NCBI RefSeq assembly: GCF_041146345.1
Contig: NW_027191410.1
Coordinates: 744,001 to 808,000 of the forward strand
DNA from: Neodothiora populina
Taxonomy: Eukaryota
DNA length: 64,000 nt
Reading direction: 5' to 3'
The position numbers and the translations under genes were made by a program. Under the pieces are notes generated by a model. The model was given only the letters and a program-made list of their open reading frames with translations. It had not been told where the DNA came from and did not search any database. Below are positions 34,783 through 49,600 of the stretch, piece by piece. Positions within the stretch are counted from its first letter, which is position 1; each line of letters begins with the position of its first letter.

Positions 34783-37617
34783 TCATGCCTTTTGTTTCCT
34801 TGGAAACTTGTAGGCGTACTTCTGATATGGCGAATTTTCATCGATGCCACACTCTTCCCGACCCCACTGACCTAGCAATACCTTACCCATAAACTCCTTC
34901 TCCTTTTCTAGTTGAGCGACCTTGTCCTCCAAAGAGCATTTGTCTTTACGAGCTTCCTTCAGTTTCGCACGCCACGAATCTTCCTTCTTCTTCATGACTT
35001 CGGAGATGCGCTTGTCGAGATCCTGCTCGAGAGCGTTCCTTTCCGCTAGAGACTGCTCGGCTTTTTCCAGGCTTTCCTTTGTCAATTCACATTCTTGCTT
35101 CATGGCTGAGACGTGTGCGGCCGAAGCAGCGCGATCTTGTCGAGCGCCAGCCATGGCTTCTTCGATAAGAAGGACTGCTTTACGATGCTCTTCGGCCTCG
35201 GCAGCACGGATTTTCGCGTTAGCTTCTGTCTGAGCTGCCACATGGGCCTTCACGTTGGCGACGTCCAATTCGCACTGCGACTTGATGCTCTTGATCTTGG
35301 AGTCGTGTTGCTGCTTGAAGCTCTTCATCTTGGCTTGGTGTTGTCGTCTTTGGTCCTGAAAGCGTTTCTTCAGGACCTCCATCTCCAGTCTCAGTGAGTC
35401 GGCGAGCTTGAGAGCCTTGTCATATCCGGCATTGAGCTCGTCGAAGTCCTTGGATGGCCCATCAGGTGCATCGAGATCATCAGCGTCCAGTCTGCTAAGG
35501 TCCTGCATCACATCGAGCTCTTCTCTCAAGGCCTTTGCTTCATCTTCAGCTTTCTGTCTAGCTGCCTGCTCCGCTGCACGCTGTTGAGATGCGCTACTCA
35601 ATTGCTGTTCCAGATGCTTTCGCGATTCCTGGTCATTGGTGCGTTCTTTGTTGGCAGCTGCCAATTTGTCTTCGGCCTGCTTTCGCAAGGCCTGCTCTGC
35701 TGCATAGTCTTCTTTCAACTTCTGGAGTTCGGCAAGGGTGTTGTCATTGGTCTCCTGCACATTGGTTCTGCGTTCATGGGTAAGTTTTTCAAGCTGACCC
35801 TGAGCTTCGTGCAGACGTCGCTCCAGACTGAGGCGGAGCTCTTCTGACTGGCGCAACTTCTCGTCGGACACTGCGCCGACCGGCGTATGACTCCCATCGT
35901 GGACATGATTGGTTTCTTGGAAAGCCTTGAGCTCTTCCAACTCGCTGTAGTACCGGTCTGCGTCCGAACGAGCATGCTCTTCTTGTCTCTGGGCTTCGTC
36001 GAGTTCCTTACGCAGACGTTGAGTCTCGTCTCTAAGAGCGGTGGCGTGCTCGTTCATTTGCTGGCGCAGCAGGCGTAAGTTATCGTTGGCAACTTTCTCG
36101 GAGTCTCTGCTGTGTTGTAAATCAGACTTTGCGGCAGCAAGGTCTTTCCCCAGACGCTGGACCTCCTCGTCATGAGCGCGCCCTTGCTCCTCAAGATGGT
36201 TCTTGAGCTCGTCAAAACTGCTCCTCGTGGCATGTTCGGAGTTCTGGGCCTGTTGCAGCTTCCACCTCATATCTTGCAGCTCGGCATCTTCAGACTCATG
36301 CATTTGATCGAGTTCTTTCGCTCGGTCGTCAGCCAGCTGCTGAGCGTCGTAGGCGGCATGCTTGGCGGCATCGAGATCTTTTCCTCTTTGTTCCGCAAGA
36401 TGGAGTAGCTCTTGTTCGGAGCGGCGCAAGCCATCCACTTCATTCATCAGATCGTCTATCTGCCTTTGATGCTCTTGTCGGTGCAGTTCTGCAGTGTGCT
36501 CCATCTCATAGTTGCGCTCTCGCACGAGCTCAAATTCGGACCTGAGACCCCTGTAATTCTGTCTTTCTTTCTCAAGCTGAGCGTTGAGTGTTTGCACTGC
36601 ATTCTGGGCCTGGGACTGCGCTTGTTGTACATCAGCGAGCTCCGTATGCAACGCGCGGAAATCGTTGTTGCGAGAACTGCTATCTCTGAAGTTGTCATTC
36701 GGCAGGAGAGCACGAGTCGGCGACAGATTGTCGATTGACGGCCGGTCAGGCGAGTGAATGCGTGGCTGAGGGCGTTGAGAAGGTCGTAAATTCAAGGCAG
36801 ATACTGGGCGACGAGGGGGATCAGGTGTTAGTTGAGCAGTTGACTGGGGCACAGTCGAATGCGGTCGAGCTGGAGTCAGATCGCTATTGTAATCCTCTAC
36901 AGTGGGTTGAAGTAGGCTTTTGGGTCGACGCATTTGAGAGAAGCGAAGCGAAGAAGAATTATGCTGAGGATCCCAGATTGAACTCTCTTGGTCAGCTCCT
37001 AGCTCTTTATCGTCGTCGTGGCTATCATATTGGTCGCGGTCGTCATTTTCGCCGTCGTCTTGGAACACCGACGATCCCTGCGTATACGCCTGGGGCTGGT
37101 CAATGTTGAGATTTGTTGCACTATCCTCGAGACTAGATGCCCTGGAATGGCCCGAGCCTGCTCTCTCATCTCTTCGTACATGATCGATTGGGTCCTGGCC
37201 AGCTTCAGAGTCGTCATGTCGGACCGCACGCGAGTGGGTTCCATCATTGCTATCACTTCTCGCGCCACCGGTATTCTCTTCACTGTTGGCGTTTCCCTTA
37301 GCCTTCGACGTTCCAGAAGGAGATCCAGGTCGCGACAAAGACCTCTGTCTGCTTTCGTCATGGATGGTGTTGACTTTAGACTTATCGAAGCTGTTCCTAG
37401 CTACGCGCTGTCTGCGAGAAGAGCCATTGATATATCTACCAAGGTTGATGGTAAAGTCGGTCGGACCATCAATGTCGCTGCTTGCAATCCTATCTATGTT
37501 GACCTCTGGGAGGAACGACAAAGGTTCTGTGTCATCAAGATCAAGAGCGTCAAGGTCCAATGAGTACTGGGTTGGAGAAGCAGGACCATCTTCGTTGGCA
37601 TGGGCCGCTGACTCCAT
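34783..37617 (-). CDS. Large coiled-coil protein, resembles spindle pole body-associated SnaD
   Basis: 944-aa ORF with long heptad-rich segments; short conserved-looking motifs DIDGPTDFTINL (N-terminal) and LLGQWGREECG..KYAYK (C-terminal). The SnaD assignment is from memory. Confidence 0.7.
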   Translation of the reverse strand: MESAAHANEDGPASPTQYSLDLDALDLDDTEPLSFLPEVNIDRIASSDIDGPTDFTINLGRYINGSSRRQRVARNSFDKSKVNTIHDESRQRSLSRPGSPSGTSKAKGNANSEENTGGARSDSNDGTHSRAVRHDDSEAGQDPIDHVRRDERAGSGHSRASSLEDSATNLNIDQPQAYTQGSSVFQDDGENDDRDQYDSHDDDKELGADQESSIWDPQHNSSSLRFSQMRRPKSLLQPTVEDYNSDLTPARPHSTVPQSTAQLTPDPPRRPVSALNLRPSQRPQPRIHSPDRPSIDNLSPTRALLPNDNFRDSSSRNNDFRALHTELADVQQAQSQAQNAVQTLNAQLEKERQNYRGLRSEFELVRERNYEMEHTAELHRQEHQRQIDDLMNEVDGLRRSEQELLHLAEQRGKDLDAAKHAAYDAQQLADDRAKELDQMHESEDAELQDMRWKLQQAQNSEHATRSSFDELKNHLEEQGRAHDEEVQRLGKDLAAAKSDLQHSRDSEKVANDNLRLLRQQMNEHATALRDETQRLRKELDEAQRQEEHARSDADRYYSELEELKAFQETNHVHDGSHTPVGAVSDEKLRQSEELRLSLERRLHEAQGQLEKLTHERRTNVQETNDNTLAELQKLKEDYAAEQALRKQAEDKLAAANKERTNDQESRKHLEQQLSSASQQRAAEQAARQKAEDEAKALREELDVMQDLSRLDADDLDAPDGPSKDFDELNAGYDKALKLADSLRLEMEVLKKRFQDQRRQHQAKMKSFKQQHDSKIKSIKSQCELDVANVKAHVAAQTEANAKIRAAEAEEHRKAVLLIEEAMAGARQDRAASAAHVSAMKQECELTKESLEKAEQSLAERNALEQDLDKRISEVMKKKEDSWRAKLKEARKDKCSLEDKVAQLEKEKEFMGKVLLGQWGREECGIDENSPYQKYAYKFPRKQKA

Positions 37618-38025
37618 GATGGAGTGTAGTGGTTCCTCAAGTATCGAGATTTATGCTCACGCGTCAAATACACAATATCAGTATAATTTCCGTCGATTCC
37701 AAAGGAGTGTTGATGACTTCATCAAAAGTCTTGATTGGATTAATGTTTGTTTTGGTCCAGTGTTTAGATCTAGTGTTTTGGCTCTTCAAGTGCGGGACAC
37801 TTCCGCCTGCGCCTTCCCCACAACGAACGGCCGCCGAACCCTGGCGATGCATTTATCATATATCACATTACCGCATTTATCGCATTATTGCAGAATCGTC
37901 CTTGATTCTGTGACAAGACTAGGTGAAGTGAAGTAAATGTTGTGCATCGCTTGACGGTGATGTGGTTGGTGATGCAATCGCACATGATAGTGTTCCCGAA
38001 TTGCCATTCGTGACTCCCGAAGATT

Positions 38026-39291
38026 TTAACCAGGCCTCCAATTCACCAGGTTTGGAGGCGAGGGAGCGAGTCTCCCACTTCCTTCCGGCTCCGAGTCAGC
38101 CTCTCTCTTCCCCTGCGATGCTCTAGCTAGAATGGTCGTCGTGTGATCCCATATCTTAGGTCCGGCTTGCTGCTCACGGAACGACTTCATCCTTGCAGAA
38201 TCGCTCGTTGCCTTGCCGTCCCAGTCTAGCAAGTACGCTCCACTCCCAGGTGTCCCATCACTTCCAGTCATGACTTCCATGTCCTCGGGCAGTGCGACGC
38301 CAATACCACCTTCTCGTGGGGAATAAACTGAGCTGGTAATTTGGAAAAGGTGTCTTTCGCCACTCTCGGCCACGTTCAGAATCCACGGTGTCATGACTGA
38401 GTATAGTATCTTGACCGCAAGTCGCACTGGGCCTGTTAGCTGATTTGCGATGCCTGTCTTGATCGTTCCCGGATAAGAGTGGAGGAACGTTGTCTTTCCA
38501 TGGCGCTTTGCAAATTCTTCCATGATAAAGTCCGTCATGACTACGCAATGTGCCAGACATGCATGTAGAGTGAAGTTCCGTTTCAGATCAAGATCGTCCA
38601 TTCGTATGTCTCCCTCAGACCCAGCTGCGAGTACCGAGCACACACGGGAGAGCTCCCCGTTCTCGGCCGCAGCGGTGACCTGAGGCATCAAGTTGAAAAT
38701 GAAGCGCACGCGAGAGTAGTAGTTCACAGCCATCTTATGGTCCAAGCCTTCCGAGGTTTCTTGAATGTAGTGCGTCAGCGACCATAAGATTCATTGCACT
38801 ATTGTGAATACTGACCATTACGGCCTCTTAGGGTCATGTACCCGGCTGTGAGGAATAAGACGTTGATCTTGTCCTCACGGCGTTGAATCTCTTCGCACAC
38901 CGCATCGACATTTCGTAGCAAACTGATATCGACTTCGAGGAAAATAGCCTCAGATCCGGGGCTGCTTTCCTCGAGCTCACAACATAGCTGCTTACCCTTA
39001 TCTACACTCCTGAAATAGGAAGTTAGTATTGTATGGTAATGGCATCTCTTTCACTAACCTGCCAAGTATATAGGCCTTCGGAGCAGTGGTTCTTTTGAAC
39101 ACCTCTCTTACGGTACTCTCACCGATACCGTTAGTGCCACCAACTACGGTATAATCGATCAGTCTTTGGTCTTAAAATTAAATGTATACCGACTCTCGGG
39201 TACAGGCAGCAGTCTCACCAAATACACAAATCAACCCTTTGAGGAAGTCCGCGCGAAGATTTGATTCGAGAACAGTCTCCCTCGTGACCGT
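38026..39291 (-). CDS. Atypical SDR-family oxidoreductase, apparently ACG-initiated (4 coding exons)
   Basis: Exons 39291-39219, 39143-39059, 39009-38816, 38759-38026 give (ACG)VTRETVLESN...CVFVGGTNGIGEST...YILGRS...EVDISLLRNVDAVC...ETSEGLDHKMAVNYYSR...HSYPGTIKT...ESGERHLF. Confidence 0.88.
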
Positions 39292-40390
39292 CTCAATATT
39301 CGCGCCAAGTATCAGGGAAGCAATGGCTGCTATGGACCCAGCTGGTAACAGCCAGCGGATGCCGTGGAACACTGTAGTTAACAGGACAGTTGTGATAGAA
39401 TAAAGCTTACTTTTCTTCAGCTAAACTCGTCTCTGATGATGTTTCGAGTTTTGCCCGAAGAAAATTGTCGTTTTGCCACGGAGATCTCCAGAGAGTGTCC
39501 CCTTCCGAGCCGGGAACTCACAGCGCAGGCTAGAAGAAGAGTCGCCTCTTGACGCTGAGCGACTCTTGGTCACAGTGAGTGTTGACGACTAGGAAGTTAT
39601 GCAAGTAAAATATTGTGGACTGAAGCACGCCCAATGCAGTAATAATCCTCTCGAAGTCCTACTGTACAAACCTCGAGTCGCGTAGGCGAGATTCGGACGG
39701 GCGTGCTGTGGTGCCAAACTCAAATGCAACTGATCATGCTCCGGATAAGGGTCCGACATTATCCTCGCTAATTACGGCCATCTGCGTTGTGCAATGTACC
39801 TTGAGATACTTTGACTCCAACCCAGTGTCCAGCATGCTTTCAGAAGCTGCTCGCAATGCAACATGCTTTCAGAAGTCGTTTGCAAGCGTAAATACAAAGC
39901 GCATTCGTGATTCCGTTGTGTCACACGGGCACTTCTAGAATTACCATCTAAGATCAGGACCCACAACATTGTTTCACGATCCAGGGTGATAACAATAAAT
40001 TATGAAGCCAATTGCGATATCATTGCTAAACCTGCGATACATACATGCAGGTGGCCTAAAACTCTATTCATGATAATTCCAGAAGCGCGTTGATATATGC
40101 AGAAGACGAATACGTCATTCCTCCTACCTCAAACTGGTTCTATATATGCCTTTCACAGATTACTGGGCCAGGTAATGATATATACCGTGCTAGCTGACCA
40201 GTTGCTTGAGTGCAACGATAATGTCATGTTAGATTTCAAATGTTAGAAGAAGCTACGATATGATCTCAAGACACATCACAATGATCAATGTTACGCTGAA
40301 CAGTTGTAGGTATGTGCTTACCATCAGGCTGACATATCTCAAGTAAATCTATGTTGCCCGTGTTCATGGTCCTGTGATTGGTAATGTATA

Positions 40391-42072
40391 TCATGTGTCA
40401 GTCTTTGGCTTTTTCCTGATCAAGCCCTGGTTCAGCATACTGACGGCAGGCGTGGGCGTGGGATCAGATGAACTGGTCTGCGAGGCAGTAGCTCCTTGAT
40501 CGGCTTTACGCTTTTTTCGAACGATCATGCCTGAGAGGTCATTTGGCGAGCTGGCTACTTGTTAGCGATGACGAGACGACATTGAGACAGAAATAATACG
40601 AACAGTTTGTCGTTCGATAGTGTTGTCGGATTGTGCTGCTGGGCAGCTATAGGCGATCTTCCCACGATCAATTTACCCCAGTCGCCTTTCACGCCAGCAA
40701 TGACTCTGACTTCGTCTACCCACTTATACGTGCTCCGTATAGCGGCCTCTTGTGTTGCAAAGTCAAGGCGCAACAAGAGATCATGTACTCGCAGATAGGA
40801 AGGATAGTCCACTATCACTTGGCCACGGCCCTCAGATGTCCATCTGTAGTAGGGTGACGTCTCGGACATGGATGTGAGGGGTTCAGCAGATGTTGTCGAT
40901 TTTATTTTGGGCATTCTTGGAACAATGCGTCCAGTCAGTTTCTTTTTCTGGCTCCTGGTCTTCGACTGCGTCGAGCCGGATGGCTTGATTGTGAGACGAC
41001 TTTTGTTCGAGAAAGATGCTCGCATTGGCTCCGGACCAGGCTCCGGTGTGAGGTGGCTGGAAAGTCCCGTCGACTGCTGACTATTGGCATTGGCGGGCGT
41101 GAAGAGGACCCAGATGAACCCTACGAGCCTGCCTGAAGCACATTCTTGTCGGAAGGCCATGGTCTCCCAGAATTGATCAAGGGTCTTGATGCTCGTCCAC
41201 ATACCCCGACCTCGCTTAGAGGGGCTGAAGAGGGTACTTGATGTTGCAGAGTCGGGTATCTCATCGTCCAGCTCATCGAGATATCGAGCTTTGGGATCGT
41301 CTGGAAAGTGGGGAACCAGGCAGCGAGGGGGTCCAGCAGGATTCGGCGCTATCTCCCATAGTGGATGACCATATAGCCACTTGGGCGCATCTGTTGGATC
41401 ACTTCTCCACGAAGGAGGGAAAAAGGAGGTGGTCTCGTACTTGTCGTGGCCCGGCACGATGACGAAGGCCTGCGCTTTCGTGTCGGTACTGCTTCCATCT
41501 TCCTTCACGCCAAGAATAGGAGACCTTCTCAATACCGGGTCCAGCGTCTTACACCACCACCTGATCAGCTGCCTGTCATCCAGCACATGTTTAGTACTGT
41601 TTTCCACACTGCCGGGGAACAGATACTGGTCTTGTGCCCGGGCAAACAATGACACCACAAGTGGCACTTTAGTTCTCTGTCTGCATTCTGACAGCCAGGA
41701 GATGAAGATTGAGGTTATGACACGTAGTGGTGATACGGTGGGGCGGGCATCAGCTTTTGTTGATTGCAGAAAGCCAGTCGAGTCAGCTTTTGCGACAAAC
41801 AGAGTGGTTAGAGACTTTGTTGTGTATATCAAAATTTCGATCGCGTACACAAGTACGTGGCGCCGACCTTGCTCAGTTGACAAGTGGGTGGATATAGTCA
41901 AGAAATGTGATTCGCAATAAGTCCGTTGCTTCTTCTCGCCAGGCGCGGATGCAAATAGTGGATCACTCTTAGTTGGAGGGGTTGAAACATGATGAAATGT
42001 AAACTCGGTGCTGAGAGGCAGAACGTCAGCCAGACGATCGTAGAAACTACGAGTGCGAGCGTGTTGGCCCAT
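40391..42072 (-). CDS. RTT109: Histone H3K56 acetyltransferase Rtt109
   Basis: TYCESHFL, FVAKADSTG, LFARAQDQYLFPGS, KHVLDDRQLIRWW, PHFPDDPKARYL, FWETMAFRQEC; a 3' intron (GTTCGT...GCTAAC...CCAG) gives the tail ...GLIRKKPKTDT*. Confidence 0.95.
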
Positions 42073-42640
42073 TGTCAAATCGTCTTCGCGCAATAGAGAG
42101 ATGCATTGAGCCTCAATACAAGAGACACAATGCGTATATTATCATTGACATTAAAGACTAGGGTGTTGGGGGATGCGTCCGGGGAAATCAATTCTTGATC
42201 TGAAGGACACGGCACGGAGTGGACGATCTCACGCTAACGACTATCGGCAATTCTGTGGTAGATAAATAGACCTCCTGTTCAGCTCTACTCAATAGCTTCC
42301 ACCTCACATTAGATCTAAGGTGATACTACTCTAATTACTTTACTTTGGTGGCACATTTGTCCACATATATCATTCCAAAGATGCAAGTCGGGTCTGATTT
42401 CATGGTCCAGTATTGCCATTGCTGCTGGGTGGGCATAGCTTACTATACAGTGCCTGTCCACTGTTATGTAGCTTAGGCATTCGCATCTCATATTGTGCCA
42501 TCTGCACCACTGGAAACAGACCTTGTCAAATATACCGGTGTCTACCCCCTCGAACTTGATTGACGCAACCGGTCGCATGGCTATATGGCTATCGACGAGA
42601 TCACGCTTAAGGTATATAAAGATTTACAAGAGCTCATCCA

Positions 42641-48307: not shown

Positions 48308-49600
48308 TCAAAACTCAGTCTTGCCGCCCGAGCCCAATGCCGAAGCACCCCAGACACCGACCAATCCCCACATGCCGACCCTCCAACCACGCCATAGACC
48401 GGAAACACCCTGACCCTTCCTCTGTCTTCGCTGTGTTTGTACGGCTCCCTTGGCCGGCGTCGAGGCGACAGATCGTGACCCCGAGTCTCGCACGCCTTCC
48501 TCCGAGGCAACGTACCACATTGTGCCCAGCACACCCCTGTATGGTCCAGGCTCGACAATTGTCTCTAGTTCTGGGCTCGAGGTGGCAGTGGTCGGCGGTA
48601 GCTGGTTGTAGCGGGCGGAGTTATATGCGGCGGTATGTTGCGTGCGTAGAACTTGCACTTGGCCACGACGCAATACTGTCTCGAGGGGCAGCTTCAGGAA
48701 TAACTCGCCGCAGGAGGCGAGGAATGTGGCGAGGGAGTATGTTGAAGGGGCGGTCAGAGGGTCGATGCGAAGGTATTGGCGCAGGATCAGAGGAGTCGAG
48801 CTTGTAATCAGAGTTGGTAGGGAGGAGTGTAAGAGTGTGGCGGGTAGAAGCGAGGTAGGTACGGCGAGCGAGGGAAGCTGGCGCAGGATTGGAACGATTG
48901 CGCGTGGCTGGGAGGAGATGGGTGTCAAGATGAGACTGTGGAGCAGTTAGTAGGGAGAGCGATGCGATGTATAGGTGAGAAGAAGCGAACCGTGTGCGGA
49001 CAAGGTCAAGCGGAGCAAGGAGCAGACCAGCAATGGCGGCGGAAGCCACAGCGATGGCAAGAGAAGCAAGAGGCGAGGGACTGTCTGCAACATCGATGCC
49101 TCCAATAGCTCCGGCGACAACCTCACTGGGATTGCCAGCGAGGGCAGCAGGGTCAGGGAGATCGGAAAGCGCAGAGAGCAGACTTCGCGTCCAGCTTTCG
49201 ACCGCCTTCACCAAGACATTGTAGATGAAGGTGGCGTTTGTCGCTTTCCACAAGCCAGTGGCACCGGACTGCTGCCAGAGCTGGGATAGAGCATCTATTA
49301 TCGAGTCTGGACGGCGAATGGCGAGTCGATGAGGGTGTTGTGGAGAAGGGTATGGATTGCGTGAGTCGGAACGGGATGACGGGCCGCGTCTACGTGACGA
49401 AGACTTTCTCGACGACTGTTCGTGAGCATGACGGGAGGGCTTGGTCGGAGTGAAATACGACGGCTCGTCGTCTTCTGATTCGTTTTCTGAAGCCGAGGGC
49501 TGGAGGTGAGAGAGTGCGGGTCAGTATTGCCTTGGCTTTCTGTTCCCGTGCGGACTGCGAAGAGCGAGGGGGAAGGAAGCAAGCAAGCAAGGAAGGAAGG

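Follow-up and report, generated by a model that had tools for sequence, protein, structure and literature searches.

An SDR-like gene of Neodothiora populina with no AUG ahead of its cofactor-binding motif and several candidate near-cognate starts

Where does translation begin on an mRNA that offers no AUG ahead of the protein's cofactor-binding motif? Within the 64,000-nt stretch of the Neodothiora populina genome analysed here (contig NW_027191410.1, positions 744,001 to 808,000; hereafter the window), a gene on the minus strand is transcribed and spliced, and its product, to judge from its sequence, is best called a divergent NAD(P)-binding protein related to the short-chain dehydrogenases/reductases (SDR), from a fungus of the dothideomycete type. 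No AUG precedes the Rossmann motif in the assembled mRNA, whose 5′ end is the contig end, and any full-length enzyme must therefore start at a non-AUG codon, as a preliminary description of the locus had argued. With moderate confidence, we favour obligate near-cognate initiation at the AUU at position 39324, accompanied by leaky use of the AUU at 39297 and the ACG at 39291. Gene structure, expression, splicing, the absence of AUG, the homology of the upstream codons and the start positions of relatives could all be read directly and are laid out in the following.

Gene structure and transcript

Splicing the minus strand as 39291..39219 / 39143..39059 / 39009..38816 / 38759..38026 yields 361 sense codons followed by TAA. 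Counted from the ACG at 39291 (codon 0, or the first of the frame, with minus numbers for codons upstream of it), the NAD(P)-binding motif V-G-G-T-N-G-I-G occupies codons 25-32 and the first methionine of the spliced frame is codon 111 (ATG 38837), which reproduces what was first described.

Sequence words of the region recur in four sequencing runs. X1 provides a DNA contig from which the window itself may stem; X2 derives from the same sample, is listed as 'DNA?' and was treated as cDNA-like because three introns are missing from its contig (38760-38815, 39009/10-39057/8 and 39144-39218; CT..AC ends in plus-strand reading, equivalent to GT..AG in the direction of the gene). The pieces of this contig (39585-39219, 39143-39058, 39008-38816 and 38759-37900) match the window with no other letters and no gaps. 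The 3′ end of the mRNA at ~37744 follows from 156 contig letters past the compared stretch, and the 5′ end at 39585 is the contig end only. Over 39585..39219 the contig is unbroken, with no joints, no loose ends and the same letters as the window; hence, an exon carrying an AUG does not join within this interval, and the previously proposed donor, GTAAGC at 39410, is present in the sequence and yet left unspliced in X2 (paired with the AG at 39374-39373, it would give an intron of only 38 nt, and we rejected it). Since an in-frame TAG (39423..39421) lies inside the mRNA, exons further upstream could not feed the frame in that transcript. The mRNA, as rebuilt, measures 1662 nt; an AUG first appears in it at nt 477, where it opens an out-of-frame reading of two codons, and the earliest AUG in the frame of the enzyme is at nt 625. 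Two circumstances named earlier as fatal to the case were not seen: a distant AUG exon spliced into exon 1 (the X2 contig is collinear to 39585), and an ATG really standing at 39291 (neither the X1 nor the X2 contigs hold other letters at 39291 or 39324). Contigs may omit rare isoforms and hide minority variants. Contig depth, a rough guide, was 14.3 for the gene's transcript and 8.4 for that of the upstream neighbour, whose transcript contig stops at 40222; no X2 contig covers 39586..40221, a gap that is uninformative about transcription.

The remaining runs, X3 and X4, hold small pieces of the region only. A 37-nt piece of X3 over 39266-39302 has six differences and is unlike the window in its flanks, and was taken as a chance match. 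Two more X3 pieces, from a run labelled as another organism, are identical to the window over 95 nt (38469-38563) and 127 nt (38720-38846, across intron 3); their flanking sequence is unlike the window's, one has a depth of 645, and they look chimeric or contaminating.

The features of the locus, in the direction of the gene, are as follows:

39735..39737 (-): nearest upstream ATG, reading M-I-S-C-I-stop, beyond the X2 cDNA contig
39046..39736 (-): ATG-free stretch, 691 nt, in any frame, from the ATG listing and simulation
39606..39614 (-): TATA-like AATATTTTA, ~21-29 nt 5′ of the X2 contig end, of presumed role only
37744..39585 (-): mRNA according to one X2 contig, 1662 nt, from the contig pieces, with a putative 3′ end near 37744
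39219..39585 (-): exon 1, leader without AUG plus first coding part, unspliced in X2, with an ATG in none of the frames
39421..39423 (-): in-frame TAG, upstream end of the frame, from the sequence
39292..39420 (-): 43 open in-frame codons before the ACG, without ATG or stop, the last 11-14 being the extension (S)IAAIASLILGANIE
39338..39357 (-): 20-nt palindrome or hairpin CGCTGGCTGTTACCAGCTGG, 13 nt 5′ of ATT 39324
39322..39324 (-): ATT, codon -11, favoured start, context gcagccATTgct, G at -3, G at +4
39295..39297 (-): ATT, codon -2, alternative near-cognate, context gcgaatATTgag, A at -3, G at +4
39289..39291 (-): ACG, the start proposed by the preliminary description, context attgagACGgtc, G at -3, G at +4
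39144..39218 (-): intron 1, 75 nt, GTGAGA..TAG, a joint in the X2 contig
39059..39143 (-): exon 2, completing V-GGTNGIG and extending to ..AYILGR, from splicing and X2
39010..39058 (-): intron 2, 49 nt, GTTAGT..TACTAAC..CAG, from the X2 contig
38816..39009 (-): exon 3, from the X2 contig, a weak PF00106 match as a fragment
38835..38837 (-): first in-frame ATG, codon 111, context gggtacATGacc, opening a 251-aa product without the cofactor-binding motif
38760..38815 (-): intron 3, 56 nt, GTCAGT..CAAG, from the X2 contig
38026..38759 (-): coding part of exon 4, stop TAA at 38028..38026, 57-80% identical to 120 listed relatives

Minus-strand ATGs within 38700..40100 stand at 38733, 38785, 38794, 38818, 38837, 38905, 38911, 38985 and 39045, the next being at 39737. 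The ATG-free interval reported earlier (39292..39734) is thus real and longer than was claimed. The ATG-to-ATG spacing of 692 nt is the longest on both strands of the window, followed by 573 (48520-49093, minus strand), 423 and 406 nt. Across 5000 first-order Markov simulations, the dinucleotides of the stretch itself gave a mean of 8.2 ATGs and an ATG-free fraction of 0.0004 of runs; with window-wide dinucleotides the mean rose to 12.6, and none of the 5000 runs was ATG-free. ATG density is 24.7/kb in the upstream flank (39737..40221, 12 ATGs) and 21.6/kb downstream (38026..39045). The ATG at 39737 stops after five codons, as had been noted; its M-I-S-C-I-stop resembles the M-I-T-C-K with which the Zymoseptoria tritici relative P0101 starts, probably by coincidence.

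Start codons across the family

Searching with exon 4 recovered 324 relatives, 120 of them listed, at 57-80% identity; the named ones are all Dothideomycetes and include Aureobasidium, Pseudocercospora, Dothistroma, Hortaea and Zymoseptoria. None of the matches listed is identical to the window's protein: the best, P0001, reaches 80% and P0003 77%, both being known as exon-4 proteins only. V-G-G-T-N-G-I-G aligns with GGTGGIG of the relatives, a glycine-rich dinucleotide-binding motif of the TGxxxGxG type. Against PF00106 (cut-off 26.6 bits), exon 3 alone, a single-exon query, scores 21.4 bits, and P0007, the closest full-length relative, scores 47.8 bits over profile positions 3-131 of 195; a profile of the family matches solved SDRs weakly (E 9e-9 or weaker, profile positions ~20-170). 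The protein resembles classical SDRs (PF00106) in its N-terminal Gly-rich NAD(P)-binding motif and Rossmann-type N-terminal half. It differs in that the catalytic Y-x3-K occurs nowhere in the 372-residue conceptual protein, Pfam and structure matches end after the N-terminal half, and the C-terminal 200 residues are specific to its family.

What do the relatives carry at the position of the ACG (hereafter the anchor)? For proteins, we compared the 31 full-length relatives with a recognisable N-terminus among those listed; for DNA, 33 metagenome loci were fetched (L numbers) and exon 1 was found in 26, seven being left out for too short an upstream sequence or a match that was not credible. A methionine stands at the anchor in 27/31 relatives, 16 of which are annotated as starting there with M-V/M-D..S/A-N, in agreement with the family start M-V-x(6-7)-S-N given in the preliminary description. 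The remaining four comprise P0101 of Z. tritici with T, P0053 with Q, P0106 with S, and one protein whose annotated start lies later. At the DNA level, tabulation of the aligned codon gave a Met codon, ATG, in 23/26 loci, and TCC or TCA in the other three (L015, L017 and L018). Among the 23 ATG-anchored loci, 12 lack an in-frame upstream ATG in the exon-1 frame (in one of these 12, L031, the frame leaves its contig). An exon-4 tree of 66 rows groups the window with P0001 and P0003 (support 97), followed by P0002 (these three relatives being 73-80% identical to the window in exon 4), a group of P0006, P0007 and L001, and an Aureobasidium group; L015-L018 fall within the window's 27-row clade and Z. 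tritici in the other large clade, which implies that the anchor methionine was lost several times independently.

The codons upstream of the anchor are themselves homologous to protein. In the window, the frame before the ACG reads ..FHGIRWLLPAGSIAAIASLILGANIE and ends ..IASLILGANIE, and the 11-14 codons directly before the ACG (..SIAAIASLILGANIE) align without gaps to an N-terminal extension that is annotated in 14 of the 31 full-length relatives and ends S-L-(L/I)-(Y/F)-G-A-N-(I/L)-E. Gap-free BLASTP matches run from window residue 30 against L001 (20/38 identical, E 1e-14), from residue 29 against Z. tritici P0101 (20/39, E 1e-8) and from residue 23 against an Aureobasidium-like locus (18/45, E 4e-10). 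Because of this alignment, ACG 39291 would most simply be an internal Thr codon of a protein starting further upstream, as in P0101, which has T there too. That this ACG, the start first proposed, is the sole or original one appears unlikely with the frame open for 43 codons upstream and the relatives' extension aligned to it. L001, the closest relative with DNA, has its start ATG at codon -11 (context gcaacaATGgcg, protein MASLIFGANLEMV), and it is this codon that reads ATT in the window (39324; context gcagccATTgct, similar flanks, protein IASLILGANIETV). ATT 39297 and ACG 39291, whose contexts had been correctly given (gcgaatATTgag and attgagACGgtc, respectively), are plausible secondary sites. 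All three near-cognates have a favourable context and lie in a frame that is open from 39420, no stop intervening ahead of the domain.

Other approaches to the extension added little. An AlphaFold2 model of Z. tritici P0101 (alignment A2) has pLDDT <50 for residues 1-29, too low to indicate packing of the extension on the fold. With extension and exon 1 together (67 residues) as the query, phmmer matched four of 1.84 billion representatives, all of them long proteins hit in 5-14 stretches, which were discarded as low-complexity. Exon-1 gene calls in close relatives (80-residue stop-to-stop query) gave five near-length candidates, unscored, and no shorter ones, and were uninformative.

Upstream regions of other family members hold observations of their own. 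L028 has 54 open in-frame codons 5′ of its main ATG (2423-2584), without an in-frame ATG, the nearest ATG in any frame being 327 nt upstream. In L008 (2578-2592), an in-frame TAG stands five codons before the ATG, separated from it by Y-A-G-V-E, which is like the family's Y-G-A-N-I-E; here the extension may have been cut off recently. L019-L025, L029 and L033 share a very conserved block, CTGACTCGGCGTTGGACTGCGTCG, ~60-85 nt 5′ of the ATG, with a TGA and then a CTG, both in frame, after which come 26-40 open codons without ATG; the extension that they encode, ..DSPPVDAL(S)SLFFSG.., is conserved. The main ATG is preceded, at a constant 41 nt (38 nt in L022), by an ATG that is out of frame. An extended isoform with a near-cognate start seems likely in that lineage.

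A second lineage in the family lacks the AUG as well. L015 and L017 (mutually identical) and L018 have a TGA at -16, an in-frame ATT at -11 (gtcaagATTact, atcaagATTact) with A at -3, a Ser (TCC/TCA) anchor, and no ATG in any frame for ~300 nt upstream. The comparison of L015 with L018 involves two sequences and few codons: from -11 to 0 there are four synonymous and no non-synonymous changes; from -11 to the end of exon 1, 14 codons are identical, 16 changed synonymously and five non-synonymously; and the four codons from the TGA to the ATT show one synonymous and two non-synonymous changes. Introns and upstream DNA are too diverged to align. Such a pattern would be expected of coding that starts from the ATT or just before it and of an AUG-less state that is old and under selection; the synonymous bias of change suggests that the AUG-less state is under purifying selection in this SDR-like family.

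Thirteen nucleotides upstream of ATT 39324 lies the 20-nt palindrome, and a counterpart, CAGCTGGCTGTTTCCAGCTGA, is found in L015 (713-728) and L018 (2394-2409), with 17/20 bases as in the window and nearly the same distance to the anchor (48 vs 49 nt, L015/L018 and window compared). Exon 1 of the window and L015/L018, unlike the palindrome, is identical at just 54/105 positions. The L015/L018 palindrome is in a different frame from the window's and holds an in-frame TGA; between L015 and L018, the 24-nt palindrome block agrees at 23/24 positions, and blocks further upstream at 3-10 of 24. L012 and L013 carry GCAGCTGGCCTTCCAGCTGC (L012 2516-2529), and 12 nt further on comes an ATT, in frame, within ccAGGATTgag. 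Distant family members thus share a palindrome with GCTGG..CCAGC as its core, 12-15 nt 5′ of an in-frame ATT. As RNA, 8-9-bp hairpins fold with -14.8 kcal/mol in the window (z -0.95), -14.4 in L015 (z -2.8), -13.4 in L018 (z -2.2) and -17.1 in L012 (z -1.2); the AUG-started L001 shows no such fold, and that of L009 is unremarkable. When 39280..39440 is folded whole, stability is within that of shuffles (z +0.53), and only the local hairpin stands out, weakly in the window. Identical stems offer no covariation, and the palindrome may work at the RNA level, as a hairpin, or in DNA, as a pair of CAGCTG sites. A bolder reading, which we consider rather unlikely, is that the family possesses an old, reusable non-AUG start module consisting of the hairpin (CAGCTGG..CCAGCTG), 12-15 nt and an in-frame AUU with a purine at -3, serving at least two AUG-less lineages, independent of each other (the window; L015/L018), as their sole start and L012/L013 as the start of an extended isoform. 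The hairpin would then be a cis-element licensing AUU initiation and not a coding remnant, given that it is conserved at the nucleotide level even outside the reading frame.

Proposed mechanism and competing explanations

How might such a gene be translated? That initiation takes place at near-cognate codons, and which of them dominates, we infer from the sequence. Ribosomes would scan an AUG-free leader of at least 261 nt and then start at in-frame near-cognates. AUU 39324 (G at -3, G at +4) would be the first and evolutionarily original site, orthologous to the upstream start used in the family, and would yield (M)ASLILGANIETVTRETV.. Ribosomes leaking past it could start in frame at AUU 39297 and ACG 39291, which would produce nested N-termini, each product with the Rossmann motif. 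ACG is usually a better near-cognate than AUU and may for this reason supply a sizeable share of the starts. Ribosomes passing all near-cognates would reach short out-of-frame AUGs and then the weak AUG of codon 111 (gggtacATGacc), and the resulting 251-residue product would be devoid of the cofactor site. Output of the enzyme would be predicted to follow start-codon stringency (eIF1/eIF5).

Several points weigh against this mechanism. Initiation at these codons is itself a prediction. In the window's own clade, the ATT and the ACG appear undated, P0001 and P0003 being exon-4-only proteins. Single-base changes of ATG are near-cognates by definition, so a fresh start loss would also leave codons such as the ATT and the ACG. 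Ile at -11 also occurs in the Elsinoe protein P0106, annotated with an upstream Met, and may be conserved merely as an amino acid. The leader by itself (39292..39585, 294 nt) is unremarkable in its lack of ATG, matched by 0.05 of simulations, and part of the longer ATG-free stretch is made up of introns, in which no selection against AUG is expected. AUU is said to have been placed by Wei and co-workers, in 2013, among the weaker near-cognates of Neurospora. Lastly, the X1 DNA contig (depth 31) is one C short in the CCC run at 39315-39317, where the window, the X2 cDNA contig and L001 (TCCCT) have three C; a two-C allele would shift all codons upstream of 39315, ATT 39324 among them, out of the enzyme's frame, keep the ACG and ATT 39297 in frame, and still have no ATG.

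The most serious competitor, doubtful in our view though by no means far-fetched, is a recent start-loss allele: in a lineage with an L001-like ATG at -11, and with Thr already in place of the anchor Met, one G-to-T substitution at 39322 would have left a gene that is still transcribed and spliced, makes little or no enzyme and is heading to a pseudogene. The ATT is one base from L001's ATG in otherwise similar flanks, and the closest relatives, P0001 and P0003, are known from exon 4; the anchor Met was replaced elsewhere too, by T, Q and S in P0101, P0053 and P0106, respectively, and by S in L015, L017 and L018; and an AUG-free leader, with its leader-only probability of 0.05, is usual for an AUG-started gene. 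The window's copy, however, bears no signs of decay: all 404 in-frame codons are free of stops and frameshifts, the three introns are processed, contig depth, at 14.3, is no lower than the 8.4 of the neighbour (again as a rough guide), and the window shows no deviation at the 57 columns in which no more than one of 121 rows departs from the shared residue. Such an intact copy may also be compatible with a very recent start loss. Branch lengths in the exon-4 tree can be read either way, as the window's end branch (0.28) exceeds that of P0001 (0.10) and resembles that of P0003 (0.25). A further argument against a fresh loss is that the same AUG-less layout, with ATT at -11, has been stably kept in L015/L018.

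Could the ACG at 39291 be the only functional start, giving (M)VTRETVLESN and leaving the conserved upstream codons as untranslated leader? The anchor is ATG in 23/26 loci, in the same GAG-ATG-GTC context, 16/31 full-length relatives are annotated from it, and a protein of that length is presumably functional; the ACG has G at -3 and G at +4, would be in frame with either allele at 39315 and is a better near-cognate than AUU. Scanning ribosomes would nonetheless meet the in-frame AUU 39324 and AUU 39297 earlier, both in good context, and the amino-acid match of the upstream codons to the relatives' extensions, the exclusively synonymous changes in the L015/L018 extension and the TCC/TCA of their anchor, which is not a near-cognate, all speak against this version. 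We therefore regard exclusive use of the ACG as improbable.

More improbable still is that an AUG was missed, either on a minor transcript from above 39737 that splices an AUG exon into the frame between 39420 and ~39340, or through an incomplete 5′ end. Position 39585 is merely a contig end, rare isoforms drop out of contigs, and 12 ATGs lie in 39737..40221; the ATG at 39737 begins M-I-S-C, compared with M-I-T-C in Z. tritici P0101, and its ATGATCA, joined to the AG at 39343-39342, would keep the frame (a reading by eye). Set against this are the collinear cDNA contig over 39585..39219, with neither joints nor loose ends, and the in-frame TAG at 39423 within it. The sole frame-keeping donor after ATG 39737 is GTTGCA, poor by comparison with GTGAGA, GTTAGT and GTCAGT; the space is bounded by the neighbour's transcript contig, ending at 40222; and L015 and L018 have no alignable upstream ATG exon in common.

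Stage-specific A-to-I mRNA editing occurs in some filamentous ascomycetes, and an in-frame AUA at 39333 (tccATAgca) or 39312 could in principle be edited to a start codon in an unsampled developmental stage, but the cDNA contig shows no other letters (minority variants can be hidden), such editing is not known to be reported for this class of fungi, and we deem the idea barely credible.

Both neighbours lie on the same strand. The upstream one, 40555..42138 (-), is an open frame of 527 codons whose product matches the HAT_KAT11 histone acetyltransferase domain at E 1e-88; the downstream one, 34783..37650 (-), is an open frame of 955 codons, Glu/Gln/Arg-rich by eye, with no Pfam matches.

Parallels and significance

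Mammalian EIF4G2 starts at GUG and TEAD1 at AUU. Among filamentous fungi, near-cognate-started N-terminal extensions are conserved, as in Neurospora crassa cpc-1 with AUU, CUG and ACG (Ivanov et al. 2017, PMC5487733), and Podospora anserina IDI-4 has been proposed to start at a CUG instead of an AUG (as cited in PMC5487733). In Ustilago maydis, a peroxisomal isoform of 6-phosphogluconate dehydrogenase (PGD) arises from AGG AUU (Kremp et al. 2020, PMC7214817).

With cpc-1, the window gene shares an in-frame extension without AUG or stop, near-cognates (AUU, CUG and ACG in cpc-1) in good -3/+4 context, a start position that is conserved while the identity of the codon varies, and an extension conserved as amino acids. 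Unlike the window gene, cpc-1 retains its main AUG and the extension makes an extra isoform; in the window, the ACG occupies the family's main-AUG position and there is no AUG-started product with the cofactor site. PGD is a case of AUU initiation in a fungal oxidoreductase, and L012/L013 read ccAGGATTgag and L015/L018 AAGATT; it differs in that its extension carries a peroxisomal targeting signal 2 (PTS2) and the cytosolic form starts from an AUG. We identified no targeting signal in the window gene, for which no search with a dedicated tool was made, and no convincing PTS2-like match in the relatives' extensions, checked by eye and likewise without a dedicated tool. The relatives may fit the dual-isoform type represented by cpc-1 and PGD; the window gene does not, as the downstream main AUG is missing and replaced by ACG. 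Like IDI-4, EIF4G2 and TEAD1, for which a start at non-AUG codons alone is proposed, it would owe its whole product to one or few near-cognates behind an AUG-free leader. Those cases rest on experiments and deep codon conservation, whereas conservation of the AUG-less state described here was seen in the sister lineage L015/L018. Literature searches for fungal genes starting solely at non-AUG codons brought up no account of this SDR family, which is not proof that there is none.

What would follow for the biology of this family? Should a fresh start loss be the true explanation, the window would hold an ordinary loss-of-function allele. Gene callers that require an ATG drop the gene or cut it to the 251-residue product from codon 111, without the cofactor site. 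If near-cognate initiation is true, an enzyme of metabolic type, and not a regulator, would be wholly dependent on a non-AUG start in a filamentous fungus. Members of the family differ naturally in having an AUG at -11, one at the anchor, one at each or none, so that simple codon swaps could test directly what near-cognate initiation costs and how it is controlled.

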